Notes: generated by a model not told the origin, from the letters alone. A DNA stretch of 34,556 nucleotides from a virus (IMGVR_UViG_3300045790_002272:1-34556); one strand, 5' to 3'. Shown: positions 145-34,556, counted from the first letter of the stretch. Program-made: numbers and translations.

Positions 145-208
145 GCCTAACAACGCCATTAAAAATCGGACTCCGCTACCGCTACGCCGTTTATGGCAAG
201 GGTTATAT
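145..208 (+). repeat. attC-like site f1 (64 nt), duplicate of 33635-33698
   Basis: GCCTAAC-AACGC-CAT[T]AAA[AAT]CGG...CCGTTTATG-GCAAGG-GTTATAT. TAAC/GTTA ends, imperfect palindrome, extra bases on the 5' arm. Stop codon of ORF 203-535 lies in the GTTA box. Confidence 0.6.
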
Positions 209-556: not shown

Positions 557-606
557 ATATAACAAGGTTTATCAAGCCGACTTCGTAAACTCGGCTGGTG
601 TTATTC
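557..606 (+). repeat. Truncated attC-like site j (50 nt)
   Basis: ATATAAC-AAGGT-TTATCAAGCCGA-loop-TCGGCT-GGT-GTTATTC. 6-bp stem AGCCGA/TCGGCT. The right arm lacks a full L' box. Stop of ORF 601-852 lies in GTTATTC. Confidence 0.35.
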
Positions 607-3601: not shown

Positions 3602-4237
3602 TTATATCCACGTTTTTAATGATTGTACAACAACGCCGCATAACCTGGCATCAGCTTGCATTTCCATGATGGGGTAACGTGGATTGATGGGCTTTAGATA
3701 GCGTTTTCCGCCATCTATCACTAGTTGTTTGCAGGTTGCTTCGGTGTTGCCGTTTTGGATAACGATAACAATGCTGTTGTGTTCTGCGATGCGAAGCGGG
3801 TCTACGATAACAATTTCATTGTCTTTTATATCAGGTTCCATTGAATCGCCTTGTATGCGCAGTGCAAAGGCGTTTTCGCTGGTTGTGGCGGTGCTTAAAA
3901 CCCAATCTTGCTCATCTTTTGGGTCGTAGTTGTCGCCAATGTCTTTCCAGTTGCCTGCGGCGACACTTGAGATAAGGGGGACGGGTTTAGAATGCACTTG
4001 GTAGGTGTTTGGGGCTTCTTTAACAGCATGGGGCGGTTTGCTGGTTCCTTCTGAGAGCCAAGCTGGGTCAACGTCTAAAACATCACAGGCTTTTATAAAA
4101 TGTGCTCTGGGGATGCCTCCGCGAACTTTCCATAGGTTTACGTTTTGTGGTTCGGTGCTCATTTTTCTAGCAAATTCTGCTTGGCTGATGCCTTTTTGCT
4201 TAAGTGCTAGGTTTAGTCTTTCTCTAAATTTTTCCAT
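3602..4237 (-). CDS. CI/LexA-like repressor (HTH_XRE plus S24 peptidase)
   Basis: GISQAEFARKM HTH, AAG cleavage-site-like motif, GDSM serine and CKQL lysine motifs. Start trimmed to ATG 4237 (MEKFRERL); no SD upstream. Confidence 0.85.
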   Translation of the reverse strand: MEKFRERLNLALKQKGISQAEFARKMSTEPQNVNLWKVRGGIPRAHFIKACDVLDVDPAWLSEGTSKPPHAVKEAPNTYQVHSKPVPLISSVAAGNWKDIGDNYDPKDEQDWVLSTATTSENAFALRIQGDSMEPDIKDNEIVIVDPLRIAEHNSIVIVIQNGNTEATCKQLVIDGGKRYLKPINPRYPIMEMQADARLCGVVVQSLKTWI

Positions 4238-4251
4238 ATACAAAAAGTATA
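4237..4251. promoter_or_regulatory. Operator-like palindrome TATAC-N5-GTATA abutting the cI start codon
   Basis: TATACAAAAAGTATA. The same half-sites recur at 4297-4311 and 2934-2948. Confidence 0.5.
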
Positions 4252-4284: not shown

Positions 4285-4315
4285 GTTGACTTACTGTATA
4301 CGTTTCGTATATATT
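4285..4315 (+). promoter_or_regulatory. PR-like promoter with operator
   Basis: GTTGACT-tact-GTATAC-gttt-CGTATATATT. -35 is TTGACT, spacer 16-18 nt, -10 is TATATA/TATATT. TATACGTTTCGTATA overlaps the -10. Confidence 0.7.
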
Positions 4316-4666: not shown

Positions 4667-5047
4667 ATGGCTATGGTTGTATTTGAAAAGGGCTGCTTAA
4701 CAGATACGGAGCTGTCGGTTTTAAGGCTGTTGGCAGATGGTTTAACGCATAAGGAGATTGCGCGTTCTATTGAATGTACAACTGCTAGCCATCGAACGGT
4801 TGAAAGCCATGTTAAGCATATTTCTGAGAAATTAGGCAGTAGGAACGCGGCGCATATGATTACGGAGGCCATGAAGGTTGGCATTATTAAGCTGCTGACA
4901 TTCGGGGTGGTTTGTGTGTTGTCTTTTAATTGCGTAATGCCTGGTTTGGATAATAGAGCGCCACTTCGCCGCCCACCGCGTGCGGTAAGGGTTAGTAGAA
5001 CGGTTGCTCGGGTTAGGGTTGAGCGTTTGGGTGGAGCGGCTGCATGA
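4667..5047 (+). CDS. LuxR/GerE-type HTH regulator with a hydrophobic C-terminal segment
   Basis: LTDTELSVLRLLADGLTHKEIARSI..SHRTVESHVKHISEKLG, then LLTFGVVCVLSFNCVM and an Arg-rich tail. RBS GGAGG. Confidence 0.7.
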   Translation: MAMVVFEKGCLTDTELSVLRLLADGLTHKEIARSIECTTASHRTVESHVKHISEKLGSRNAAHMITEAMKVGIIKLLTFGVVCVLSFNCVMPGLDNRAPLRRPPRAVRVSRTVARVRVERLGGAAA

Positions 5048-5826
5048 GCATTGGTTTAATGGGGCTCGTTTTTAAAGATGAAGAGTTGCAGAGCAATGAG
5101 AAGTTGGTGTTGTTGGCGCTGGCTGATAATGCGAATGACGAGGGGATTTGTTATCCATCGTTAAGCACTTTGCAGGTTAAAACAAGTTTATCGCGCCCGA
5201 CTGTTTCTAAAATTTTGAAAAAGTTGGCGGCGAATGATTATTTATTTGGTGTTAATCGTGCGCGTAAAAAAGGCGGTAGAAGTTCGAATATGTATTTGCT
5301 TTTTCCGGCTAAAAATTACCCTAACTTGGATGAGTTTTTTAAGTCTAAATTTGAGGCGTATGAGTGTGTTAATTCTGAGTTATCCACAGGCCAAAGTAAA
5401 GAGGCTTTACTACCCCCCCAAAGTAAAGAGGCTTTACTAGGGTTAGGGAGCCAAAGTAAAGAGGCTTTACTAGAAAGTGAATCATTACTTAAAAGCTTAT
5501 TTAACCATAAGGGATTTTCTTGTTTAAAACGTGATGAGAAAACGCTGTTTCTGTCGTACCTAAAATTACGCAAAAAAATGGGCTTGATTACGACGATGGA
5601 AATTAAGATTCGGTTGCTTGAAAAATATCATGCATTTGGCCGTGATATGCAGATTATTGAAAACGCGATTAATGCAAATTGGAAAGATTTTTATTCAACG
5701 GGAGGGAAAGATGGAGCGAGTGGAAAATTTAGTAAAACAACATCAGCCGCGCAATCCCACCACGACACGCTCAAGCAAATTGCAAAAGAAGCCGATGAGC
5801 GAGAAATGGGTGAGCGCGTTGTTTAG
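5044..5826 (+). CDS. Replication initiator (HTH, lambda O-like role)
   Basis: N-terminal HTH_36-like EKLVLLALADNANDEGICYPSLSTLQVKTSLSRPTVSKILKKL. Iterons lie inside the gene. Confidence 0.65.
   Translation: MSIGLMGLVFKDEELQSNEKLVLLALADNANDEGICYPSLSTLQVKTSLSRPTVSKILKKLAANDYLFGVNRARKKGGRSSNMYLLFPAKNYPNLDEFFKSKFEAYECVNSELSTGQSKEALLPPQSKEALLGLGSQSKEALLESESLLKSLFNHKGFSCLKRDEKTLFLSYLKLRKKMGLITTMEIKIRLLEKYHAFGRDMQIIENAINANWKDFYSTGGKDGASGKFSKTTSAAQSHHDTLKQIAKEADEREMGERVV
5391..5472. repeat. Origin iterons: 3 copies of CCAAAGTAAAGAGGCTTTACTA
   Basis: Exact 22-mers at 5391, 5418 and 5451, each with the dyad GTAAAG/CTTTAC, followed by an AT-rich stretch. They encode QSKEALL x3. Confidence 0.7.
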
Positions 5827-9060: not shown

Positions 9061-9258
9061 ATGTTAAGTGATGATTTGAGTAAAGAGACAAGGAAAGCGG
9101 AGGAGGCGATACGCGTCGCGCTTCAAAAGCTTCATGAGACGACAGGGTTAATACCTGTTTCTGTATCGTTTAGCCCCGTTGATGTTAGATGTATGGATGA
9201 TCATGGGAAACGCAAGCAGGTGGTTATTTCTGATGTGGAAGTGATAGCGAATACTTAA
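9061..9258 (+). CDS. Hypothetical protein (65 aa)
   Basis: ORF preceded by the repeated GGGTGGGGATATG initiation context. Confidence 0.4.
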   Translation: MLSDDLSKETRKAEEAIRVALQKLHETTGLIPVSVSFSPVDVRCMDDHGKRKQVVISDVEVIANT

Positions 9259-9368
9259 CACCCGCATAACCGGCGCAGCTTTTAGCGCCCGGTTCATGCG
9301 CTGGTTAGAAAATTAAGTAAAAGAAACCATTTTAATTCCAACCTTTTTTAATTTTTTTAAATTAATGC

Positions 9369-9398
9369 TTGACGGTTAAGTCCGCACTTTGATACTAT
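9369..9398 (+). promoter_or_regulatory. Late promoter (PR'-like)
   Basis: TTGACG, 18-nt spacer, extended -10 TGaTACTAT, in an AT-rich gene-free region. Confidence 0.6.
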
Positions 9399-9427
9399 TT
9401 TTCCCCATAGTACGGATTATTACGCAA

Positions 9428-9453
9428 AGCTCCTTTTGAAGGGGCTTTTTTTA
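9428..9453 (+). terminator. Late-leader terminator 1
   Basis: AGCTCCTT-ttg-AAGGGGCT followed by TTTTTTT. Confidence 0.65.
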
Positions 9454-9504
9454 TGCCTATAATTCTTTGTAAGGCGTTGTTTTAATCCGTCTTTTTCTCC
9501 TCCT

Positions 9505-9528
9505 AGTCGCTTTTTGCGGCTTTTTTTA
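9505..9528 (+). terminator. Late-leader terminator 2
   Basis: AGTCGC-ttttt-GCGGCT followed by TTTTTTT. Confidence 0.55.
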
Positions 9529-9529
9529 T

Positions 9530-9559
9530 GCCCGTTGTTTTCAGCGGGCTTTTTTTTTG
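9530..9559 (+). terminator. Late-leader terminator 3
   Basis: GCCCG-10 nt-CGGGC followed by T9. Confidence 0.6.
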
Positions 9560-9567
9560 GGTGTTTT

Positions 9568-17273: not shown

Positions 17274-18833
17274 ATGCAAAAAATACTATTACTAACGCTT
17301 CTGCTATGCAGCTCGCATCTGTACGCGCAAAACTACTATGTGTGCGATACGGGCGACGACAATAACGCAGGCACTTCTATTGCTGCGCCGTTTAAAACAG
17401 CCTCTCGTGCTTTAGGTGTATTCAATTCTATGAACGGCGGTGATAGCGTTTTGTTTTGCAAAGGAGGCAAGTTTCCTGCACCTAATCGAAATACGCTCTT
17501 TAATCAAAAATGTAGCGCAAGCTCAGTGTGTACACTTGGTGCATATGGGCAAGGTAATAAGCCAGAAATATTTTCTACAGGCCAAACGGCGGCGCTTTAC
17601 TTTACAGACAGTGGCGACCCGTCCCCCAGCAAAGGCTATGTGGTTAAGGATTTAGCATTAGTCTCAGACAATACAACAATGTTTGGTATTGAGCTTTTTA
17701 ATGATGTTGATGATGTCACGATTGAAAATGTGCGCATTGAAGGGTTTGGTATAGGGGTCTATTCAGCAGGCGCTAATGCCGTTACCTCGTCAACTGTAAA
17801 CGGCACGAATGACAGACTTGTGTTACGAGACTCAACCATTATTAATAATTATGGACAGGGCTGGTTAGGTGGTGGTGTCGGTGTGCTGATTGAGAACAAT
17901 ATTTTTGAAAATAATGGGTTTGAAAAAGCAGTCTTTAACCATAATATTTATTTATCTGGGCATGAAAATAACCCAAGCTCAGACATTATTGTCCGTGGGA
18001 ACACGCTGTATAAATCTGCGTTTATCAACGGCAGTTGCCAAGGCGTCTCGTTGGTGGGGCATGGATTAATTAGTAATTTACTGATTGAAGATAACCTTAT
18101 TAAAGAAGATGAAGGCACCGCCGGGTTTGGTTGTTGGGGTATTGCCATAGACCCAGGGTATTCAATGCAAGAAGCCTTCACAGGTTTAACGATTAGAAAT
18201 AATAGAGTCGAAAACGTTGGCGGTTTAGCCATTGGTTGTGCCTCGTGTGTTGATGTAGTTGTAGAGGGCAACACGATACTTGACCCTTCAGGTTCTATAC
18301 GCTCTGGCGTTGCTATTCCTGATCGCGCAGAAGATTCTTTATTATCCGACAATGTGGTGATTAAAAATAACACAATGCTGTTAGGTCGCGTTGATGCGAC
18401 CGGGGTAAGGGCCTCTGGCGCTAATTTATTTACTGTTATTAATAACAGTATAGATCAAGTATCAAACAGTACAGAACCGTGCATTGATGGGTGGGCAGGG
18501 AACGCGAACTTAGACACATCGACAAATATTTGTACAAAAAACGGCGTATTGCCTACGCCAGTTGATGAACCCGTTGACGAACCAGTTGATGAACCCGTTG
18601 ACGAACCTATTGATGAACCTATTGATGAACCTGTTGGATGTGCTGATGTCTCAAAACAGCAGTTAGCTGGGCTATTAACGCAGCTAACAAATTTAATGAA
18701 TAACGCGGGTAATACAGTATCTGCAATGCGTTCAGTAACAGATTTGTATAGTAAAGATCAGGAAGTATTAAATGAGTTAGCGGCATTTAAAATGCTGTTA
18801 CAAGGCAAAAAACTTTGCAGTGAGGCAAACTAA
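17274..18833 (+). CDS. Secreted right-handed beta-helix (pectate-lyase-fold) protein
   Basis: Sec signal MQKILLLTLLLCSSHLYA|QN. Repeated xNNxI/V motifs (IENNIFENN, IEDNLI, IRNNRVENV, VEGNTI, IKNNTM, INNSI). (VDEP)n linker. Confidence 0.65.
   Translation: MQKILLLTLLLCSSHLYAQNYYVCDTGDDNNAGTSIAAPFKTASRALGVFNSMNGGDSVLFCKGGKFPAPNRNTLFNQKCSASSVCTLGAYGQGNKPEIFSTGQTAALYFTDSGDPSPSKGYVVKDLALVSDNTTMFGIELFNDVDDVTIENVRIEGFGIGVYSAGANAVTSSTVNGTNDRLVLRDSTIINNYGQGWLGGGVGVLIENNIFENNGFEKAVFNHNIYLSGHENNPSSDIIVRGNTLYKSAFINGSCQGVSLVGHGLISNLLIEDNLIKEDEGTAGFGCWGIAIDPGYSMQEAFTGLTIRNNRVENVGGLAIGCASCVDVVVEGNTILDPSGSIRSGVAIPDRAEDSLLSDNVVIKNNTMLLGRVDATGVRASGANLFTVINNSIDQVSNSTEPCIDGWAGNANLDTSTNICTKNGVLPTPVDEPVDEPVDEPVDEPIDEPIDEPVGCADVSKQQLAGLLTQLTNLMNNAGNTVSAMRSVTDLYSKDQEVLNELAAFKMLLQGKKLCSEAN
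18558..18635 (+). repeat. 12-bp tandem repeat encoding (P-V/I-D-E)x6-7
   Basis: ccagttgatgaa/cccgttgacgaa units, in frame within 17274-18833. Confidence 0.85.
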
Positions 18834-19261
18834 TGGCTGGCGATACAATTAATGTAGAAGGCGCTTGGGCAACGCTGCAAGCAGCCGCGAGCACAGCAAA
18901 CGGCGCGATGTCGGCTGGCGCTAGAACGGATATAGTGACAGCGCTTGGCGCGACAGAAGCGGCTTACCCGTTGATTGATTTTAAAGTTAGCGTGAGTGTT
19001 GGTACGCCCACATTAAACGGCAAGGTTCATATTTTTAGGCGCTCTAAAGCAGACACTGACGAAAGCCCTGCGCCAACCTCTGCTTACTTGTCTGAGCGTG
19101 TTGCGAGCATAAAAATGAGTAGCACAGCGTCAAGTCATTATTATGCTTACGGTATACCGAATTTTGACAAAAACGCAACGTACTACATTCAAAACAGCGA
19201 TGGCGCTAATACGCTAACACTAGCGCTAAAAGCAAGAGCGCGGTCATATAACACTAACTAA
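18833..19261 (+). CDS. Hypothetical protein (142 aa)
   Basis: TAATG overlaps at both ends (translational coupling). Confidence 0.5.
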   Translation: MAGDTINVEGAWATLQAAASTANGAMSAGARTDIVTALGATEAAYPLIDFKVSVSVGTPTLNGKVHIFRRSKADTDESPAPTSAYLSERVASIKMSSTASSHYYAYGIPNFDKNATYYIQNSDGANTLTLALKARARSYNTN

Positions 19262-20799
19262 TGTCGATTATACTACCGAATAGCCGATTCCAAGCCCCTG
19301 AGTTATTCGACGGCACTAAAAAGCCTGCCGTTAATGTACAAATTGATTGGTCGAATCCGGTCACAGAGGGTTTAGTCGGCTTTTGGATATTTCAAAACGG
19401 CCTAGCTATCAATTTAGTTGATGGCACTATTGTTAGCGATACAGCTGGCATGACCGAGGCAGATGCTGAAACAATCGCGTGGGATGATGCGGCCTCAACT
19501 AATGCGGCGTTTACATTACAAAGCGGATTCGATTTTACAAGCAATGCGACGGTTATCGCGCGCGTTAAAAAAATAGGCACGGAAGGCTGGCCTATTCTAT
19601 TCAGTATGGGCAGTAATCCCGCCGCGACAGATGATTTTGTCGGCATGGGCTACTGGGACACGGGCCCCAATCTTAGAACGTTTTATGCATCATCCTCACG
19701 TGTTATTAGTAAGTCTGTGAACCGAGGGGTTTATCTTACGGGCGCTTTAACGGCGGACGTTGCTGCAAATGAAATAAAAGCTTATGTGGATGGGCAGTAC
19801 AGGGTAACTGACTCAATCAGCTCAAAAGGGTTAGATCTTACGAAGATTGATAACATCACGCTCTTTGGTCAAGGTACAACAGTTGTAGAGCCGCTAGGAT
19901 TGTTTGAAGGTGACTACGTTATTGCGTTTGAGTCTACTAAAACGGCTGAAGAGGTAGCATCACTTTATGATTCGCCGTATCAGTTTTTAATACCTGAGGT
20001 TGGGGCGTCGCTTATATCGCTTGGTCATCTGCAAAGTGCTGATGGGCTTGGTTCCTTTGCCGATACAAGTAGCTGGCAGCCGTTAACTTCCGTTAAGTTG
20101 TCGGGGTTAGTAACGCTTGGCAGTGTTGACAGTTTTAATGACTTGTCGATTAGTAAAACAGTTCAATTAGGCAGTTTTGCAGAAGCATCAACATTTAGTG
20201 CGCTAAACAGCAGTAAAGTTATACAGCTGGGTTCATTTAGTGAATTAAGTGCATTTGGTTCTATCACTAGCACGCAAGGCGTTCAGCTAGGTGCGCTATC
20301 TGAATCATCAGCGTTTGGCAGCTTAAATGCTGGCAAAGTGTTGCAGCTTGGCTCGTTTGGCGAGTTAACTACGTTTAATGCGATAACCTCTGGCAGTGCG
20401 GTAACGCTGGGTGCATTGGCTGATGCGGGCGCATTTGGTGGCATAACTAGCACTAAAACAGCGGTGCTTAATCCCTTTAACGATGCATCGGCGTTTACTG
20501 CATTAAGCAGCAGTAAAGCAACTCAGCTGGGTGCCTTTGGTGAGTTAAGTGTTTTTAATGCGGTAACCCAGGGTAATTTTGTAACGCTTGGTGCATTTGG
20601 CGAGGCCAGCAGTTTTGCAAACATTGCCACAGCTAAAGCGTTTAATCTTACCGGGTTTAGCACGACTGATTTATTCGGCGCTATTAATGCCAGCGGTGGC
20701 GCTCAAGTAATAGGTGGTCACCGTGCAACTGTGCAGCAATCACTTAATAGCAGCGTCATTACTCAATCGAATAGCAAAGCAACGATAACGCTTCAATAA
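19261..20799 (+). CDS. LamG/ConA-like N-domain protein with a C-terminal 20-aa repeat array
   Basis: N-terminus LVGFWIFQNG...DGT.. is LamG-like. aa 261-480 are 10-11 units of xxLGxFxExSxFxxIxSxxx. Confidence 0.55.
   Translation: MSIILPNSRFQAPELFDGTKKPAVNVQIDWSNPVTEGLVGFWIFQNGLAINLVDGTIVSDTAGMTEADAETIAWDDAASTNAAFTLQSGFDFTSNATVIARVKKIGTEGWPILFSMGSNPAATDDFVGMGYWDTGPNLRTFYASSSRVISKSVNRGVYLTGALTADVAANEIKAYVDGQYRVTDSISSKGLDLTKIDNITLFGQGTTVVEPLGLFEGDYVIAFESTKTAEEVASLYDSPYQFLIPEVGASLISLGHLQSADGLGSFADTSSWQPLTSVKLSGLVTLGSVDSFNDLSISKTVQLGSFAEASTFSALNSSKVIQLGSFSELSAFGSITSTQGVQLGALSESSAFGSLNAGKVLQLGSFGELTTFNAITSGSAVTLGALADAGAFGGITSTKTAVLNPFNDASAFTALSSSKATQLGAFGELSVFNAVTQGNFVTLGAFGEASSFANIATAKAFNLTGFSTTDLFGAINASGGAQVIGGHRATVQQSLNSSVITQSNSKATITLQ
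20041..20700 (+). repeat. 60-bp (20-aa) tandem repeats, about 11 copies, diverged
   Basis: Exact 20-residue periodicity counted from the translated ORF (VQLGSFAEASTFSALNSSKV / IQLGSFSELSAFGSITSTQG ...). Confidence 0.8.
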
Positions 20800-22845: not shown

Positions 22846-22892
22846 CCCGCTTATGCGGGTTTTTTTATGCCTGCTTCATGCAGGTTTTTTTA
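22846..22892 (+). terminator. Two tandem intrinsic terminators upstream of the major tail gene
   Basis: CCCGC-ttat-GCGGG plus T7, then CCTGC-ttcat-GCAGG plus T7. Each is followed by ATGCCTG. Confidence 0.7.
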
Positions 22893-22926
22893 TGCCTGTT
22901 TTTAGGCAAAACAACGGAGAAATATA

Positions 22927-30383: not shown

Positions 30384-30671
30384 TTACATTGCTGATACGC
30401 GTGGGAATGCTTTGCGCGTCCATTCCTGTACGCGACTCCACCCGATTCTTGATTTCCATAGTTTGCCGTCTATATAGCAGTCGTAACAATCGATTCTATC
30501 TGTTTTGCGCAATTCCATGCGGTATTCTTTGCGACCAAAGTCGTGATCTATGATGATGATTTCACGACGTAGGTCGGGCAGTTTAGCTGGATAGTCTGGC
30601 TGTGGGCTTTCTAAGCGTGTTCGTTCACGGGCTTTTAACGCTTGTTGTGCTCGTTTGGTTGTTCTGTACAT
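30384..30671 (-). CDS. Hypothetical basic protein upstream of int
   Basis: 95 aa, 12 nt from the int start. RBS AGGTAGGA. No family recognised. Confidence 0.5.
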   Translation of the reverse strand: MYRTTKRAQQALKARERTRLESPQPDYPAKLPDLRREIIIIDHDFGRKEYRMELRKTDRIDCYDCYIDGKLWKSRIGWSRVQEWTRKAFPRVSAM

Positions 30672-30706
30672 TTTTTCCTACCTTGCACGGTTAGGTTAAT
30701 GCGGTG

Positions 30707-31048
30707 TTATGCAGCATTCGAGAAGTTGGTAATCTCAGAGATTCCAACACGTTCTTGGTATCCGCTAGATTGAGTAAAATCTTTTGTTAGCCACACATCA
30801 CCCATGCGGCTGGCTCCAGTGACTCGGTAGCGCTCGCCTTTATAATCACAATAGAGTTGGTACTGAGTAATAATATTGGAGAACTTACACTTCAATGTTT
30901 CCGGCATTCTCTTCATATTCAAAAACCAGCTTGCGTACACGTCTGTGTCGGGATGGTCAATGAATTCGTCAACATGCTCCATAACAAGCAGGTCAACTCG
31001 ACCGCTTACCGCGTCGTTTGTTTCAAATTCTGTGGTTCCGTTTATCAT
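30707..31048 (-). CDS. Hypothetical protein (113 aa)
   Basis: RBS GGAGA. TAA stop is the complement of TTA in GTTATGC (30706-30712). Confidence 0.55.
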   Translation of the reverse strand: MINGTTEFETNDAVSGRVDLLVMEHVDEFIDHPDTDVYASWFLNMKRMPETLKCKFSNIITQYQLYCDYKGERYRVTGASRMGDVWLTKDFTQSSGYQERVGISEITNFSNAA

Positions 31049-31107
31049 TTTCGTGTCTCCAAGTTTGTGCCACTCAATCGCGGCAAGTTACCTTCATCGT
31101 TATGTGT

Positions 31108-31356
31108 CTAAATCATATCGTCGATTCGTTTTTTTAATCCGTTAATATTGCGAATATCATCAAGCCTTCTATGGCCATGGAAATAATCATCAATTAGATT
31201 CATATCTACCCACCGACTTTCCTCTAAGTCAAAAAACTGCTTTTCGCAATTAAGATACACTCCTTCCATTTCATCGCCATAGTTGTACATGCAATAAGTG
31301 ACTGCCATATTCGGTGCATCATCCACTATCTGCGTATCAGTTTTGTAGCCCTTCAT
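31108..31356 (-). CDS. Hypothetical protein (82 aa; start trimmed to MKGYKTD)
   Basis: Strong RBS GGGAGGA 4 nt upstream of ATG 31356. Confidence 0.5.
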   Translation of the reverse strand: MKGYKTDTQIVDDAPNMAVTYCMYNYGDEMEGVYLNCEKQFFDLEESRWVDMNLIDDYFHGHRRLDDIRNINGLKKRIDDMI

Positions 31357-31371
31357 AAATCCTCCCGTAAC

Positions 31372-31496
31372 ACATAACAACAGCTTCATTGCGACCCTGC
31401 GGGTCGTGGCTTTGTTCTGTATTTTCGTTTGCGTCTGTCATCGTCTCAATCTCCTAAACCTACTTCCCCGCAGGGCGCTATAAGCAGGGGTTATAC
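31372..31496 (+). repeat. attC-like site (125 nt)
   Basis: ACATAAC-AACA-GCTT[C]ATTGCG[A]CCCTGCGGG...63 nt...CCCGCAGGG-CGCTAT-AAGC-AGGG-GTTATAC. About 19 bp of pairing, with two unpaired bases 6 nt apart on the 5' arm. Confidence 0.65.
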
Positions 31497-31769
31497 GGAT
31501 AGTCCGTCTCGATCAGCCAGCGCTGTCTCGCATGAATTTAGTAGCGTTGATGTGTGAACTAAGTTTCTTTCTGCCAATCCTAGCTGTAGCTCAAGCTCCT
31601 TAATTCTATTCAAGCTTCGCTCAGCAAGATCAACGCAGGAAACGGTAATGAACGACTCGTACCCTGATTCAGTTTCATACAGAACATCAATCTCTGAGTT
31701 ACCCAAGTCGTCAGGAGAGTAAGCGGCTAATGTTTCTAGTTGATATTTTATGTGTTCGTTTTCATTCAT
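31491..31769 (-). CDS. Hypothetical acidic protein (92 aa; start trimmed to MNENEH)
   Basis: RBS GGAG upstream of ATG 31769. The longer form would run into the attC-like site. Stop lies in GTTATAC. Confidence 0.55.
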   Translation of the reverse strand: MNENEHIKYQLETLAAYSPDDLGNSEIDVLYETESGYESFITVSCVDLAERSLNRIKELELQLGLAERNLVHTSTLLNSCETALADRDGLSV

Positions 31770-31787
31770 AGTTTTTACTCCGTTTTC

Positions 31788-31849
31788 GTATAACAAGTCT
31801 TTCAAAAAGAGCCGGAACAGCACCGGCCTGTTTAACTAGGGCGTTAGCG
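31788..31849 (+). repeat. attC-like site (62 nt, type 1)
   Basis: GTATAAC-AAGTC-TTT[C]AAAAAG[A]GCCGG-aacagca-CCGGCCTGTTTAAC-TAGGGC-GTTAGCG. Confidence 0.7.
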
Positions 31850-32005
31850 AGCCTGGCGGCGCTTGTTCAGCTTCGCAACATAGGCCCGTATCTGCTTAAA
31901 ATCGTCAGGGTGGGCATAAAGGCTTCGAATCTCTTTAAGCCCCTCTGCTGCCCTGCGCTCCTTTAATTCTGCCTGCCGCTCCGCAACGGTTTTGGCAGCA
32001 CTCAT
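31844..32005 (-). CDS. Small basic protein (53 aa), ERQAxLxERRAAxG family; not in the ORF track
   Basis: Hand translation gives MSAAKTVAERQAELKERRAAEGLKEIRSLYAHPDDFKQIRAYVAKLNKRRQAR. ATGA overlap with the upstream ORF. Paralogue of 33693-33836. Confidence 0.55.
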   Translation of the reverse strand: MSAAKTVAERQAELKERRAAEGLKEIRSLYAHPDDFKQIRAYVAKLNKRRQAR

Positions 32006-32187
32006 ATCCGTTCCGCCTTTGTCGCTGGAACAGACTTGAGGTCTCCTTTAGGCCAGTTGCACTTAGATGACTGAGGGGAGCAAAGCAGTATCACGCGCCC
32101 ACTTGCTCCAAATTCGATATCCTCAATCTTCCAGTCTGCACCGTTGAATTTAACTATTGCGCCCTTTTCAATTTCTTCCAGTTTCAT
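32002..32187 (-). CDS. Hypothetical protein (61 aa), first gene of a two-gene unit
   Basis: RBS GGTGA. Preceded by its own promoter. Translationally coupled to the 53-aa ORF. Confidence 0.5.
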   Translation of the reverse strand: MKLEEIEKGAIVKFNGADWKIEDIEFGASGRVILLCSPQSSKCNWPKGDLKSVPATKAERI

Positions 32188-32213
32188 ATCTTCACCTTTA
32201 GGTTAGTCGTAAC

Positions 32214-32244
32214 ATAATAATAGCTGTTAGTCGTAACGTGTCAA
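32214..32244 (-). promoter_or_regulatory. Cassette-internal sigma70-like promoter flanked by 12-bp direct repeats
   Basis: Minus strand: TTGACA, 17-19 nt spacer, ATTATT/TATTAT. GTTACGACTAAC occurs twice (32226-32237 and 32202-32213), bracketing the -10. Confidence 0.55.
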
Positions 32245-32251
32245 GTGTTTT

Positions 32252-32321
32252 CGCTAACACCCCGCAGCATCCGACCCTCAAAGCTTGCAGCTTTTCGGTC
32301 GGCTGTGCTCCAAGGTTATAT
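32252..32321 (+). repeat. attC-like site (70 nt)
   Basis: CGCTAAC-ACCCC-GCAGCATCCGACC-ctc-AAAGCT-tgc-AGCTTT-tc-GGTCGGCTGTGC-TCCAAG-GTTATAT. Spacers are 5 and 6 nt. Extra bases on the 5' arm. Confidence 0.55.
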
Positions 32322-32537
32322 GTACGCCTTTACAAAAAGTGGTGCTCTTAAATATGTCTTTGACGCGTCATCAAAAACCATATTATTCGGATTTAGCTCT
32401 CTGTAATTTTTAAAATCTCTCGTAGCAGTTGCAGGGCTAATTCCAAAGAAATCTATAATAAATTCACGTTTTATTTGGCCGTATTTATCTAGCAAAAAGT
32501 CAATCAGCCTGAGTCTTTGTTCAATTGCGTAGTTCAT
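32316..32537 (-). CDS. Small wHTH protein (73 aa; DeoR/HTH_11-like)
   Basis: RLRLIDFLLDKYGQIKREFIIDFFGISPATATRDFKNYRE. Stop lies in GTTATAT. Confidence 0.55.
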   Translation of the reverse strand: MNYAIEQRLRLIDFLLDKYGQIKREFIIDFFGISPATATRDFKNYRELNPNNMVFDDASKTYLRAPLFVKAYI

Positions 32538-32560
32538 AATTTACCTTTTTCACGGTTTTC

Positions 32561-32622
32561 ATATAACAATTCTTTCAATCAGAGCCGGAAAAGCACCGGC
32601 CTGTTTAACTAAAGCGTTATGT
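32561..32622 (+). repeat. attC-like site (62 nt, type 1)
   Basis: ATATAAC-AATTC-TTT[C]AATCAG[A]GCCGG-aaaagca-CCGGCCTGTTTAAC-TAAAGC-GTTATGT. Confidence 0.7.
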
Positions 32623-32952
32623 GTCTTCATTTCTTGATTTCATTAAGACTCTAATTTCTTGGGCTATTATTTGACGCGCCCTGGTCGCGCTTACACCTAG
32701 AACTTCGCCAGCTTGTGCGTAAGTCTTTCCGTCTAATTTATGTAGTGTTAGGATGATTCCTCGGAGTCGCTTATTCTGATTTTGTAGCTTTTGATAGCTC
32801 TCGTAGGTCACGTTGGCTTCTTTTTTATCGCTTCTGTTGCTTTTTTTGAGATCAGCTTCTTTTTTTCTAGAGGCCTTGATTTCCTCCGTTAGGCTCCTTT
32901 CTTTATTTCTCACTCTTTCTCGTTCTTCAATTAATACGCTTAAATCGCTCAT
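32617..32952 (-). CDS. Coiled-coil protein with a C-terminal sigma70-region-4-like HTH (111 aa)
   Basis: KTYAQAGEVLGVSATRARQIIAQEIRVL. ATG lies in GTTATG (complement of the TAAC box). Stop lies in GTTATGT. Confidence 0.55.
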   Translation of the reverse strand: MSDLSVLIEERERVRNKERSLTEEIKASRKKEADLKKSNRSDKKEANVTYESYQKLQNQNKRLRGIILTLHKLDGKTYAQAGEVLGVSATRARQIIAQEIRVLMKSRNEDT

Positions 32953-33051
32953 AACAAGTATCTCCAGTTGACAAATAACCGCATCGGCATTTGTCGTTAA
33001 ATTTAAAGTTTTCAGTAGCGGTTATTTGCTACTGAGAATTTGGCGTTATGC
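32949..33051 (+). repeat. attC-like site (103 nt, type 2)
   Basis: TCATAAC-AAGTA-TCTC[C]AGT-tga-CAAATAACCGC...GCGGTTATTTG-ct-ACTGAGA-ATTTGGC-GTTATGC. The complement of TCTCC is the GGAGA RBS of ORF 32617-32952. Confidence 0.65.
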
Positions 33052-33261
33052 TTCGGGCAGTTTGTAGTTTCCATCATTTCGCGGCCACAAGAAAATAGCA
33101 TCCTTCGGAGGAATCCACCCTCTAGCCTTTGACCCTACAGGGTGAGCTATACAGTCTGATCGATTAACACCGTAAAGTTTTGGCAGTTGCCAAGCGCTTA
33201 TATAGTGCCTATCACCATCTTTGGCTACTACCCCACCTCCGCTTAATACATAAATAGGCAT
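33046..33261 (-). CDS. Hypothetical protein (71 aa)
   Basis: ATG lies in GTTATG, RBS GGAGA lies inside the type-2 site, stop lies in GTTATGC. Confidence 0.55.
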   Translation of the reverse strand: MPIYVLSGGGVVAKDGDRHYISAWQLPKLYGVNRSDCIAHPVGSKARGWIPPKDAIFLWPRNDGNYKLPEA

Positions 33262-33359
33262 AACAAGTATCTCCAGTTGACAAATAACCGTTCCGGCTTT
33301 GTCATTAAATTTAAAGTTTTCAGTAGCGGTTATTTGCTACTGAGAATCGGGCGTTAGGC
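33258..33359 (+). repeat. attC-like site (102 nt, type 2)
   Basis: Near-identical to 32949-33051, with differences in the central loop and the right-hand spacer. Ends GTTAGGC. Confidence 0.65.
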
Positions 33360-33696
33360 CGCTATGTAAACGCGGTGTTGTCCGGCAACTTTCATATCTT
33401 TTGTAAGCTCCTTTATTTCACCAAGCTCAACCAGCCTGTCTACGCAAGCCAGCATTGCCCACGAATCACCAGTGCAGCCAGCAATAATCTCTTGGCACCT
33501 CGCAGCCCCCGAGGTTTCTAAAAGCCGCTTTGCTTGGTCGCGTATTTTTAAAAATTGCTTTTGGCCTTCTTCTGTAAAAATGGCTGCCTTTTCATCTTCA
33601 TAGTTGTACATAAATCAATCCGTAGTTGGGCGCTGCCTAACAACGCCATTAAAAATCGGACTCCGCTACCGCTACGCCGTTTATGGCAAGGGTTAT
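33351..33696. repeat. 346-bp direct repeat, copy A (ORF plus attC-like site)
   Basis: Identical to 34290-34556 continued at 128-206, except one base (33618 a versus 128 c). Confidence 0.9.
33354..33611 (-). CDS. Hypothetical protein (85 aa), copy A
   Basis: Protein identical to 34293-34550. Stop lies in GTTAGGC. Confidence 0.6.
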   Translation of the reverse strand: MYNYEDEKAAIFTEEGQKQFLKIRDQAKRLLETSGAARCQEIIAGCTGDSWAMLACVDRLVELGEIKELTKDMKVAGQHRVYIAA

Positions 33697-33698
33697 GT
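33635..33698 (+). repeat. attC-like site f2 (64 nt)
   Basis: Same as 145-208 but ends GTTATGT. Confidence 0.6.
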
Positions 33699-33836
33699 TG
33701 CCTTTCGCAATTTTCTTACTAATTCATCAACTTTTACTTTCTCAGCATTGGTTAAGAAAAACTCCCGTCTTTTTTGGCCTAAAGCAGCTCTACGTTCTCG
33801 CAGAGCTGCTTGGCGTTCTTTATTTGATTTAGGCAT
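33693..33836 (-). CDS. Small basic protein (47 aa), ERQAxLxERRAAxG family; not in the ORF track
   Basis: Hand translation gives MPKSNKERQAALRERRAALGQKRREFFLTNAEKVKVDELVRKLRKAT. ATG lies 2 nt after the stop of 33839-34144. Stop lies in GTTATGT. Confidence 0.5.
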   Translation of the reverse strand: MPKSNKERQAALRERRAALGQKRREFFLTNAEKVKVDELVRKLRKAT

Positions 33837-33838
33837 TG

Positions 33839-34144
33839 TTATCCGCCAAAAGGCTCTGATCCGTTATTGCTACCAAAATCTTGTCCCCAAATTTCAATAT
33901 TCCAATCCTGTATCGCTTTTTGACAGATGGGTTCGTAGTAGCTTTTTTCTCCTGATTTAACAATAATATCAAGAGCTTTTATAGTCGCTTCCATTTCACT
34001 ATCAGATGTTTCTCCGTTAAATCCTTCCCCCATTATATCTATAGCATCTATACCAGAATCTATCCCATCACATAATGTTTCTATGTCATTCATATTGAAG
34101 TTTTCTTCTAATCCATCTACTACATGTTTAAATAAAGTTGTCAT
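33839..34144 (-). CDS. Strongly acidic hypothetical protein (101 aa)
   Basis: About 21 D/E versus 5 K and 0 R by my count. RBS GGAG. Preceded by its own promoter. Confidence 0.55.
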   Translation of the reverse strand: MTTLFKHVVDGLEENFNMNDIETLCDGIDSGIDAIDIMGEGFNGETSDSEMEATIKALDIIVKSGEKSYYEPICQKAIQDWNIEIWGQDFGSNNGSEPFGG

Positions 34145-34173
34145 TTCCTACTCCTTTTCGTTAATGTAGGTAT

Positions 34174-34202
34174 ATTATTGCATTGTTACCGGTAACAGTC
34201 AA
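34174..34202 (-). promoter_or_regulatory. Cassette-internal sigma70-like promoter with a palindromic operator
   Basis: Minus strand: TTGACT, 17-nt spacer, AATAAT. The perfect palindrome GTTACCGGTAAC (34185-34196) fills the spacer. Confidence 0.6.
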
Positions 34203-34236
34203 GCGATTAATGCAAATAAAATAATTTAGGACGGCA

Positions 34237-34298
34237 ACATAACAAGTCATTCAATCAGAGCCGGTAAAGCACCGGCCTGTTTAACTAAAGCGTTAGGC
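34237..34298 (+). repeat. attC-like site (62 nt, type 1)
   Basis: ACATAAC-AAGTC-ATT[C]AATCAG[A]GCCGG-taaagca-CCGGCCTGTTTAAC-TAAAGC-GTTAGGC. Confidence 0.7.
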
Positions 34299-34556
34299 CG
34301 CTATGTAAACGCGGTGTTGTCCGGCAACTTTCATATCTTTTGTAAGCTCCTTTATTTCACCAAGCTCAACCAGCCTGTCTACGCAAGCCAGCATTGCCCA
34401 CGAATCACCAGTGCAGCCAGCAATAATCTCTTGGCACCTCGCAGCCCCCGAGGTTTCTAAAAGCCGCTTTGCTTGGTCGCGTATTTTTAAAAATTGCTTT
34501 TGGCCTTCTTCTGTAAAAATGGCTGCCTTTTCATCTTCATAGTTGTACATAAATCA
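34290..34556. repeat. 346-bp direct repeat, copy B (continues at 128-206 across the circular junction)
   Basis: Exact match to 33351-33617. The remainder matches 33618-33696 with one mismatch. Confidence 0.9.
34293..34550 (-). CDS. Hypothetical protein (85 aa), copy B
   Basis: Identical to 33354-33611. Confidence 0.6.
   Translation of the reverse strand: MYNYEDEKAAIFTEEGQKQFLKIRDQAKRLLETSGAARCQEIIAGCTGDSWAMLACVDRLVELGEIKELTKDMKVAGQHRVYIAA

Follow-up and report, generated by a model that had tools for sequence, protein, structure and literature searches.

We examined a viral stretch of DNA of 34,556 nucleotides (IMGVR_UViG_3300045790_002272:1-34556; "the window" below means this whole stretch) in which a series of attC-type recombination sites, the sites at which integrons exchange gene cassettes, alternates with small genes. 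The last 127 nt of the window are identical to its first 127 nt, and an independent contig, from another sample and with the array internal, was 100% identical over 11,650 bp to the circularised window, which confirmed the join; the window is therefore a circular genome of 34,429 bp and, as read from its sequence, that of a marine, lambdoid temperate phage. Between xis-int and the early-left genes, within the early-left operon, lies a cassette array of the integron type without an integrase (cluster of attC sites lacking integron-integrases, CALIN). It runs from 30707 to 34429, over the circular junction, and on to 600, and holds 11 cassettes, with 10-11 co-oriented attC sites in 4.3 kb; the sole tyrosine recombinase nearby is of lambda type. 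An earlier note on this DNA had set the array at 31491-34298; the sites within those limits are real, but the true array is larger. Each cassette carries its gene in the inverted orientation, on the attC bottom strand, and almost every one of these genes stops exactly at the crossover. We consider it probable that this is an integrase-less, inverted phage cassette array whose cassettes are exchanged by a host IntI.

Strand was assigned with a covariance model (R1) built here from the top strands of 11 attC sites that came from class 1 integrons (plasmids), the orientation of the training set being fixed by intI1 and the resistance genes. In controls, R1 placed 7/7 held-out class 1 attC sites on the correct strand with 23-39 bits, gave the wrong strand of the training sites only 10-16 bits, and in the complete integrons L016 and L033, which have an IntI homologue, set the top strand pointing away from intI, as expected. 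Run on the window with filters off, R1 returned nine + strand matches in the array at 14.8-37.2 bits, seven with E < 0.01 and two weaker; at none of these nine sites did the minus strand score better, its best being 9.1 bits or less, so that the outcome which the earlier note had named as a refutation, a better fit with the minus strand as top strand, did not occur. The sites are attC-type and the + strand is their top strand. The same had been proposed in the earlier note from bulges and spacers, and that geometry was borne out: type 1 sites carry bulged C16 and A23 and 5/6-nt spacers on the + strand, the published top-strand criterion being extrahelical bases G16 in L'' and T23/24 on the bottom strand (PMC5027507). 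On the + strand a type 1 site reads GTATAAC-AAGTC-TTT[C]AAAA-AG[A]GCCGG ... CCGGC-CT-GTTTAAC-TAGGGC-GTTAGCG, a near base-for-base match to the aadA1 attC. At all sites the inverse cores R''/R' read xxxTAAC ... GTTA[G/T]xx on the + strand, and bulges were found in the + strand 5' arm of type 1, of type 2 and of 31372-31496, and likewise in a solo site elsewhere in the genome on that site's own top strand.

Hairpin covariation was assessed over 47 phage-borne sites aligned to R1, an alignment that was fitted to the model and is hence biased towards structure; 89.9% of the cells were paired vs 27-38% with a slid partner, and compensatory cells numbered 140 vs 48.5 in shuffles. A search of Rfam at E <= 1 gave no family at the attC sites. 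Terminator-like and promoter-like counts were at chance level (promoter-like, 8 found vs 8.4 expected). Of the minus-strand promoter-like sites, two fall outside the repeats, in cassettes 4 and 9; the loop of attC 2 holds a weaker one (9/12). That the sites are intrinsic terminators was ruled out by the chance-level count of terminator-like sequences.

The eleven minus-strand ORFs (open reading frames) listed in the earlier note have their low ends, in + coordinates, at 203, 601, 30707, 31491, 31844, 32316, 32617, 33046, 33354, 33693 and 34293, and all eleven ends are correct: in each the stop is a TAA complementary to the TTA of a + strand G|TTA[T/G] box, the bar marking the crossover. With the gene that ends at 9258 beside the solo site the count of stops at the crossover becomes 12/12 (p about 2e-6, for a frame chance of 1/3). 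The further statement that every ORF ends on the last base of its cassette stood for the eleven and failed for the array ORF 31108-31356, which ends in TAG. Two of the boxes also need qualifying, that at 30707 being the junction of backbone and first cassette, where there is no attC, and that at 601 belonging to a backbone gene beside a decayed attC. Endings in TAAC away from the sites had been put at one in nine early-left genes outside the array; the figure was corrected to 3/15 among minus-strand ORFs that do not adjoin a site. In the bottom-strand R' box, RYYYAA|C, a gene can find its stop in the TAA and so end on the last base of the cassette.

Type 2 sites were confirmed to supply start signals as well: ATG (minus-strand GTTATG) and GGAGA are present in 32949-33051 and 33258-33359, the start codon and ribosome-binding site (RBS) of ORFs 32617-32952 and 33046-33261 sitting within their own type-2 attC, and in cassette 6 the ATG falls in R'' and the GGAGA in L'' of the cassette's own site. 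With start codon and RBS in or beside R''/L'' of its own attC, each mobile unit would bring a complete gene with it. All of the array ORFs (13-14) lie on the attC bottom strand, and the top-strand cargo upstream of the attC that is typical of the family was not found in the array. The recombinogenic bottom strand is, by these predictions, the sense strand of the operon under the putative PL-like promoter; most cassettes would rely on read-through from PL, and the two 2-gene cassettes have promoter-like sites of their own.

Table. Features of the cassette array, the solo site and the phage genome; positions are those of the window, bits and E values are from R1
Feature	Position	Strand	Score or remark
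Backbone/first-cassette junction GCGGTG|TTATGC	30700-30713	+	crossover 30706|30707; preceding backbone GGTTAGGTTAATGCGGTG
Cassette 1: ORF 30707-31048, 113 amino acids (aa)	30707-31099	minus	start and RBS in loop of own weak attC
attC 1, weak/degenerate	30979-31105	+	19.3 bits, E 0.011; overlaps N-terminus of cassette 1 ORF
Cassette 2: ORF 31108-31356, 82 aa	31100-31490	minus	exception: TAG stop 8 nt inside cassette
attC 2, long variable loop	31372-31496	+	by eye; R'' ACATAAC, bulged C16 and A23, R' GTTATAC
Cassette 3: ORF 31491-31769, 92 aa	31491-31843	minus	
attC 3, type 1	31788-31849	+	30.2 bits
Cassette 4: ORFs 32002-32187 (61 aa) and 31844-32005 (53 aa)	31844-32315	minus	promoter-like site 32244-32217
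attC 4	32252-32321	+	14.8 bits, E 0.15; 5'-arm bulge read by eye; bottom-strand fold z = -3.35
Cassette 5: ORF 32316-32537, 73 aa	32316-32616	minus	BrxR-type winged-helix (precomputed Pfam)
attC 5, type 1	32561-32622	+	32.1 bits
Cassette 6: ORF 32617-32952, 111 aa	32617-33045	minus	helix-turn-helix (HTH) resembling sigma-70 region 4
attC 6, type 2, ~100 nt	32949-33051	+	21.5 bits; 96% identical to L018 attC
Cassette 7: ORF 33046-33261, 71 aa	33046-33353	minus	phrog_7644
attC 7, type 2	33258-33359	+	28.3 bits
Cassette 8: ORF 33354-33611, 85 aa	33354-33692	minus	second copy is cassette 10
attC 8, type 3	33635-33698	+	26.5 bits; like arr-3 attC
Cassette 9: ORFs 33839-34144 (101 aa, acidic) and 33693-33836 (47 aa, basic)	33693-34292	minus	promoter-like site 34202-34174
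attC 9, type 1	34237-34298	+	37.2 bits
Cassette 10, exact copy of cassette 8	34293-34556, then 128-202 past the 127-nt assembly overlap	minus	
attC 10, type 3, copy of attC 8	145-208	+	25.1 bits
Cassette 11: ORF 203-535, 110 aa	203-600	minus	
attC 11, decayed	557-606	+	by eye; ~13 nt (L' and spacer) missing vs intact relative L019 3848-3922
Backbone gene, DUF3850/ASCH	601-852	minus	its TAA stop makes up the array's last G|TTA junction
Solo attC, rightward operon	9253-9310	minus	19.1 bits; top strand = minus
Predicted PL-like promoter	2959-2930	minus	consensus match only; would drive early-left operon through array
S24-peptidase repressor	3602-4243	minus	
Predicted PR-like promoter	4286-4315		mirror of PL-like promoter
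Initiator gene	5044-5826		holds three iterons
Three 23-nt iterons within initiator gene	5390-5472	+	likely replication origin
Large terminase, portal and tail genes		+	
Lambda-type phage integrase	29184-30371	minus	not an integron integrase
Putative xis	30384-30671	minus	

The crossover was located at G|TT by three independent lines of sequence comparison, which also indicate that cassettes turn over between relatives. Within the array, 33351-33699 recurs as 34290-34556 plus 1-209 at 99.7-100% identity, and what is duplicated is precisely one cassette: it opens at G|TTAGGCC, takes in the 85-aa ORF with its type-3 attC and closes at ...GG|G, and the neighbours of the two copies differ on both sides; that the duplication arose as an artefact of circularising within a repeat was ruled out by the independent contig, in which the array is internal and identity is 100% over 11.65 kb. 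Cassette 11 (198-582) has 94% nucleotide identity to a cassette of L019, a phage with an SU10-type portal that is otherwise unrelated to the window, and the similarity begins at G|TTATAT. The sister phages in IMG/VR contig 3300031841_004194 (L046, L047) and in a metagenome contig (L048) have backbones 93-96% identical to that of the window, and their similarity to it ends at 30709/30710 and at 595, the outermost G|TT sites. On the xis side three phages (the window, L046 and L048) have in common ...GGTTAGGTTAAT[G/A]CGGTG| and then diverge into TTATGCAG, TTATAAGG and TTAGTTTC; at the other array end the sisters have a different, intact attC ahead of the identical G|TTATTCTTC... Different cassettes on the same backbone base are the expected product of site-specific insertion and are left unexplained by homologous recombination. 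Three phages keep the backbone sequence GGTTAGGTTAATGCGGTG|TT, each with a different first cassette; the 30706|30707 junction acts like a fixed docking point, possibly of the attI kind. At 30672-30706, and also in L046 and L048, there are three GTTA-type boxes in 25 nt (GGTTAGGTTAATGCGGTG|TTA), recalling the integrase-binding boxes of attI.

Orientation was then counted in all sets by R1 together with a longest-ORF rule. The window gave 0 canonical and 11 inverted cassettes, with an antisense ORF ending at the crossover for 8/9 R1 matches. Bacterial arrays of the same attC subfamily (Lysobacter, Pseudoxanthomonas, Stenotrophomonas, Arenimonas and others) gave 33 canonical and 2 inverted (such antisense ORFs, 8/44), and the complete integron L016 gave 11 canonical and 1 inverted (3/13). 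Six viral arrays with small cassettes gave 4 canonical and 25 inverted; array by array, inverted cassettes numbered 7/7 in L012, 7/8 in L005, 3/3 in L019, 2/2 in L011, 4/7 in L015 and 2/2 in L020, and stops at the crossover 4/4 in L019, 6/8 in L012, 6/8 in L015, 5/9 in L005, 2/3 in L011 and 3/5 in L020. In Fisher tests against the bacterial set, the six viral arrays gave p = 1.7e-11 and the window gave p = 6e-9. The earlier claim that the minus-strand ORFs reverse the usual order of ORF then attC was upheld, at 11/11 inverted in the window vs 2/35 in bacteria by the same method. The strand of the flanking genes around the other viral arrays was uninformative in high-GC loci because of spurious long ORFs, and only L019 and L011 were clean. 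The exact type-1 core had zero matches in 185,000 species genomes, and a looser pattern matched at 9 loci. In L041, a prophage-like locus of a Porticoccaceae bin, there is a weak attC-like match at 9226-9270 (17.4 bits, E 0.08); the small + strand genes to which it lies antisense include one for a homologue of the 110-aa cassette protein.

In the window the solo attC extends the pattern to the rightward operon. There the + strand ORF 9061-9258 ends TAA|C at the crossover, so that here too the attC is antisense to its genes, and on either side of the origin, as a rule, sense strand and attC bottom strand coincide. The bottom strand of this site folds with z = -3.8 and both bulges on the 3' arm, and a homologue of the site was found inside the L018 array. 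In the stretch 9253-9560, at the end of the rightward early operon, the site is followed by a promoter-like TTGACG...TACTAT and three terminator-like hairpins with T runs; this region could be a cassette without an ORF or a control region of the late operon. A repeat family, D8, occurs at 9434-9539 and again at 22848-22903.

Pseudoalteromonas phage H101 showed the same arrangement. R1 found four + strand sites in it, the genes annotated there all lie on the minus strand, and at exactly the R1 positions the published primers show the + strand as top strand of PH101_attC1 and attC2. The H101 attC sites are recombined by IntI1, which uses their bottom strand better than their top strand (Qi et al. 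2023, PMC9892861); the text of that paper leaves the inverted cargo unmentioned and calls the H101 layout typical of bacterial arrays (PMC9892861).

The cassettes are very small (about 300-600 bp), and their ORFs are real genes, the 110-aa family having 51 homologue clusters and the 85-aa family 657, while Pfam families and a PHROG family are matched by other cassette proteins. Diverse phage types without attC sites have homologues of the 110-aa protein, which places the source of the cargo in the phage gene pool; an origin of the 110-aa gene in bacterial integrons was ruled out on the same ground. Annotation of the cassettes with PHROGs, PADLOC, NCBIfam and Pfam yielded almost nothing beyond phrog_7644, the HTH, the ASCH and a precomputed BrxR assignment, and an AlphaFold2 model of the 110-aa family (predicted local distance difference test, pLDDT, 66; predicted template-modelling score, pTM, 0.38) was too poor for fold comparison. 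A counter-defence role of the cargo is only a guess. The 73-aa protein of cassette 5 carries the precomputed Pfam BrxR winged-helix PF26109, for which a separate Pfam scan here returned nothing; a phage copy of a domain from a regulator of BREX (bacteriophage exclusion) is a hint that the phage interferes with host defence.

Cassettes 4 and 9 are the only ones with two ORFs, and their strong minus-strand sigma-70-like promoters match at 11/12 and at 10/12 plus TG. Both begin with one ORF (61 aa in cassette 4; 101 aa and very acidic in cassette 9), after which comes that of a small basic protein (53 and 47 aa), and the two basic proteins are alike in the motif ERQAxLxERRAAxG; the pairs could be toxin-antitoxin-like, regulator pairs, or a DNA-mimic anti-restriction protein with its partner. 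Upstream of ORF 32002-32187, at 32200-32240, lie tandem GTTAGTCGTAAC mini-palindromes in which an R'-like box abuts an R''-like box; they may have been left behind by lost cassettes, or may serve to bind proteins. In the variable loop of attC 2 begins a minus-strand leader ORF of 34 codons (31337-31441) with a good RBS (AGGAG), which crosses L''/R'' and extends over the start of the cassette 2 gene.

A search for IntI with the NCBIfam integron-integrase models and with IntI1 in tblastn found none in the window or in any phage-like locus examined, so that a host IntI would have to act in trans. NCBI names a Cycloclasticus pugetii bin as the source of the exact 85-aa protein, the contig of which was seen in 8 samples, and intI has been reported in a Cycloclasticus symbiont. 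A contig of a Cycloclasticus bin (L038) carries a type-1 attC 93.7% identical to attC 3 of the window (31788-31849), followed by canonical sense cassettes. Antisense to that attC, at 6376-6601 of L038, is a Cys-rich 50-aa ORF with its RBS beside R'', which has the look of a phage-style inverted cassette; it heads a chromosomal array whose next cassettes are canonical and may be a trace of exchange between phage and host.

Megablast with 20 kb of the window found nothing among cultured phages, and the array had only a trivial 56-nt match in a distant blastn. No cultured phage is close, the best match of the large terminase being 63% identical. Two long, unannotated + strand ORFs of the late gene block contain repeats: 17274-18833 has a 12-nt tandem repeat (18546-18641) encoding a P-[VI]-D-E tetrapeptide repeat, and 19261-20799 has three 75-nt repeats, 120-180 nt apart, at 20182-20556.

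Four other explanations of the array were weighed. If the minus strand were the top strand, TAAC would be R'', the crossover would fall at the other end of each site, and the orientation would be canonical; R''/R' are inverse repeats in which both strands read RYYYAAC...GTTRRRY, and stops inside R'' are common in ordinary cassettes such as aadA1. We give this hardly any credence, as R1 scored 15-37 bits on + vs 9 or less on minus, the bulged bases are on the 5' arm of the + strand, the duplicated unit is an ORF plus the attC to its right and is bounded at right-hand boxes, and it is at right-hand boxes that homology with L019, L046, L047 and L048 breaks. Nor is it likely that the sites are RNA or regulatory hairpins (terminators, processing sites or the mobile promoter stem-loops of T4-type phages) whose modules are shuffled by homologous recombination. 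They do stand between every gene of the operon and would fold in its mRNA, some give an RBS and ATG, one is terminator-like (31828-31810), and IntI is absent; but besides the chance-level terminator-like and promoter-like counts and the lack of an Rfam match, they score like genuine held-out attC sites with strand-specific bulges, sites of the same class in H101 are recombined by IntI1, and at the xis-side junction three cassettes stand on one backbone base with no left-hand repeat available. A phage recombinase, whether the adjacent lambda-type Int/Xis or an unrecognised protein, might act in place of a host IntI, given the integron-like geometry of an array that abuts xis-int with its integrase divergent from the top strand and a fixed docking junction. 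This we regard as highly improbable: the Int has an arm-binding domain and fits no integron-integrase model, inverted arrays occur in other phage types beside other genes (the portal in L019; H101), and the sites fit the IntI substrate model, those of H101 working with IntI1.

The sites could also be genuine attC sites in a frozen relic that was captured once from a bacterial array and has since ceased to be exchanged. Several observations lean that way and weigh against active exchange: 13 contigs from several samples carry the 85-aa protein and fall into two groups, those grouped with the two that were examined keeping the same neighbour genes, so that turnover is not fast; L055, the contig that was compared directly, is 100% identical to the window across the array; the last attC is decayed; and IntI is absent. 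Even so, a relic is improbable in view of the 93-96% identical sister backbones with different cassettes at both ends, the 99.7-100% identical internal cassette duplication, the cassette common to the window and an unrelated SU10-like phage, and a cargo of phage families that are also seen without attC sites and are not bacterial cassette genes. Other points count against the reading as an exchanged, inverted phage array. Two sites are weak (30979-31105, 19 bits; 32252-32321, 15 bits), and R1 missed the long-loop attC 2 (31372-31496), where the fold covered 31390-31497 with the R''/L'' arm left out. Unconstrained folds were unremarkable for the type-1 site 31788-31849 on both strands (z -1.5, -1.2) and for the type-3 site 33635-33698 (z 0.0). 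The longest-ORF rule is crude in high-GC loci, L015 being ambiguous; in H101 the ORFs ending at the crossover were 0/4, so a stop at the crossover is not universal; and the host assignment rests on the binning of a circular phage contig.

Under the reading that we prefer, of an inverted phage array served by the host, IntI acting in trans would fold the bottom strands and swap cassettes at A|C (top G|TT), and the region beside xis would serve as a hypervariable store of accessory genes. The least certain part is why the cassettes are inverted, for which we offer three ideas. Both junctions of a backbone gene with an attC (600|601 and 9258|9259) are at TAA|C, which suggests that arrays may be seeded at stop codons: IntI would place a cassette at a secondary G|TTA, complementary to the TAA|C with which a tightly packed gene stops, and this would be the one position where an insertion breaks nothing. 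The attC top strand would thereby be set antisense to the operon, and cargo would be expressed only if co-oriented, that is inverted. The second idea concerns replication. Lagging-strand placement favours folding and excision (Loot et al. 2017, PMC5371416), and with the iterons at 5390-5472 as origin the recombinogenic strand would be on the lagging-strand template, favouring high turnover. The third is insulation of expression, phage and bacterial cassettes each being silent in the other's array. A wider proposal, which we put forward tentatively and hold to be somewhat doubtful, is that phages may keep a pool of very compact, inverted cassettes of their own, with the stop codon in the last three bases of the cassette and RBS and start within the attC, docking at a fixed attI-like junction or at a backbone TAA|C and shuffled by host IntI in infection or lysogeny. 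The reversal would hold the pools of phages and bacteria apart in expression, and the whole would form a network through which unrelated phages exchange accessory or counter-defence genes.

Integrons are known as bacterial devices of gene capture, including that of antibiotic-resistance and anti-phage defence genes, and phage attC arrays without an integrase, already known from a few phages, have been viewed as curiosities and possible vehicles for bacterial cassettes. The inverted form with stops at the crossover appears to be undescribed, our literature search having found no description of systematic inversion, of the crossover stop, of coding signals embedded in attC or of the breakpoint evidence. 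Such arrays recur across phage types with reversed phage cargo, and the content of near-identical phages differs exactly at the crossover. If host integrases drive the exchange, phages would be using integron machinery to diversify early genes, probably for host takeover or counter-defence. The array would also be a natural case of cassette orientation, replication strand and transcription being combined otherwise than in bacteria, which bears on the questions of cassette origin and strand choice; and integron pipelines that assume same-strand cargo would mis-annotate such cassettes.

The array was compared with known systems. PeSLs (promoter(early) stem-loops) of T4-type phages, which Arbiol et al. 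are said to have described in 2010, reportedly flank small ORFs in hyperplastic regions; they are hairpins with promoter and terminator-like parts and are thought to act via homologous recombination. The window resembles them in having a repeated stem-loop between small, fast-changing early phage genes and in modular shuffling. It differs in that its repeats fit the attC model, their bulges being strand-specific and their crossover defined at G|TT, and that neither promoters nor terminators are in excess; an early promoter in every repeat, as in PeSLs, was not found, the promoter-like sites of the window being at chance.

With bacterial integrons (class 1 and the chromosomal Xanthomonadales type) the window has in common the order R'', 5-nt spacer, L'' with bulges 16 and 23, loop, L', 5-6-nt spacer and R' G|TTRRRY, scores in the held-out range, and one orientation per array. 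Cassette duplication occurs in chromosomal integrons, and the window shows it likewise. Unlike them it lacks intI and a recognised attI or cassette promoter (Pc), and its cassettes are very small, hold phage-type genes and are antisense in 11/11. Sedentary chromosomal integrons also hold inverted cassettes, e.g. toxin-antitoxin ones with promoters of their own; these form a minority and need to bring a promoter along. A phage-borne example has been reported (PMC9892861). The antisense ORFs of the window are like these, cassettes 4 and 9 being 2-gene units with promoter-like sites; here, however, every cassette is inverted and most apparently need read-through from a phage promoter. Nearest are the phage CALINs (PMC9892861; H101/PH101), which are likewise attC arrays without intI in a phage, of the same aadA-like class and with antisense genes. 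Compared with H101, the window has 11 cassettes placed in a temperate early-left operon, ORFs that end exactly at the crossover with RBS/ATG embedded in attC, and direct comparative evidence of turnover at the level of single cassettes.

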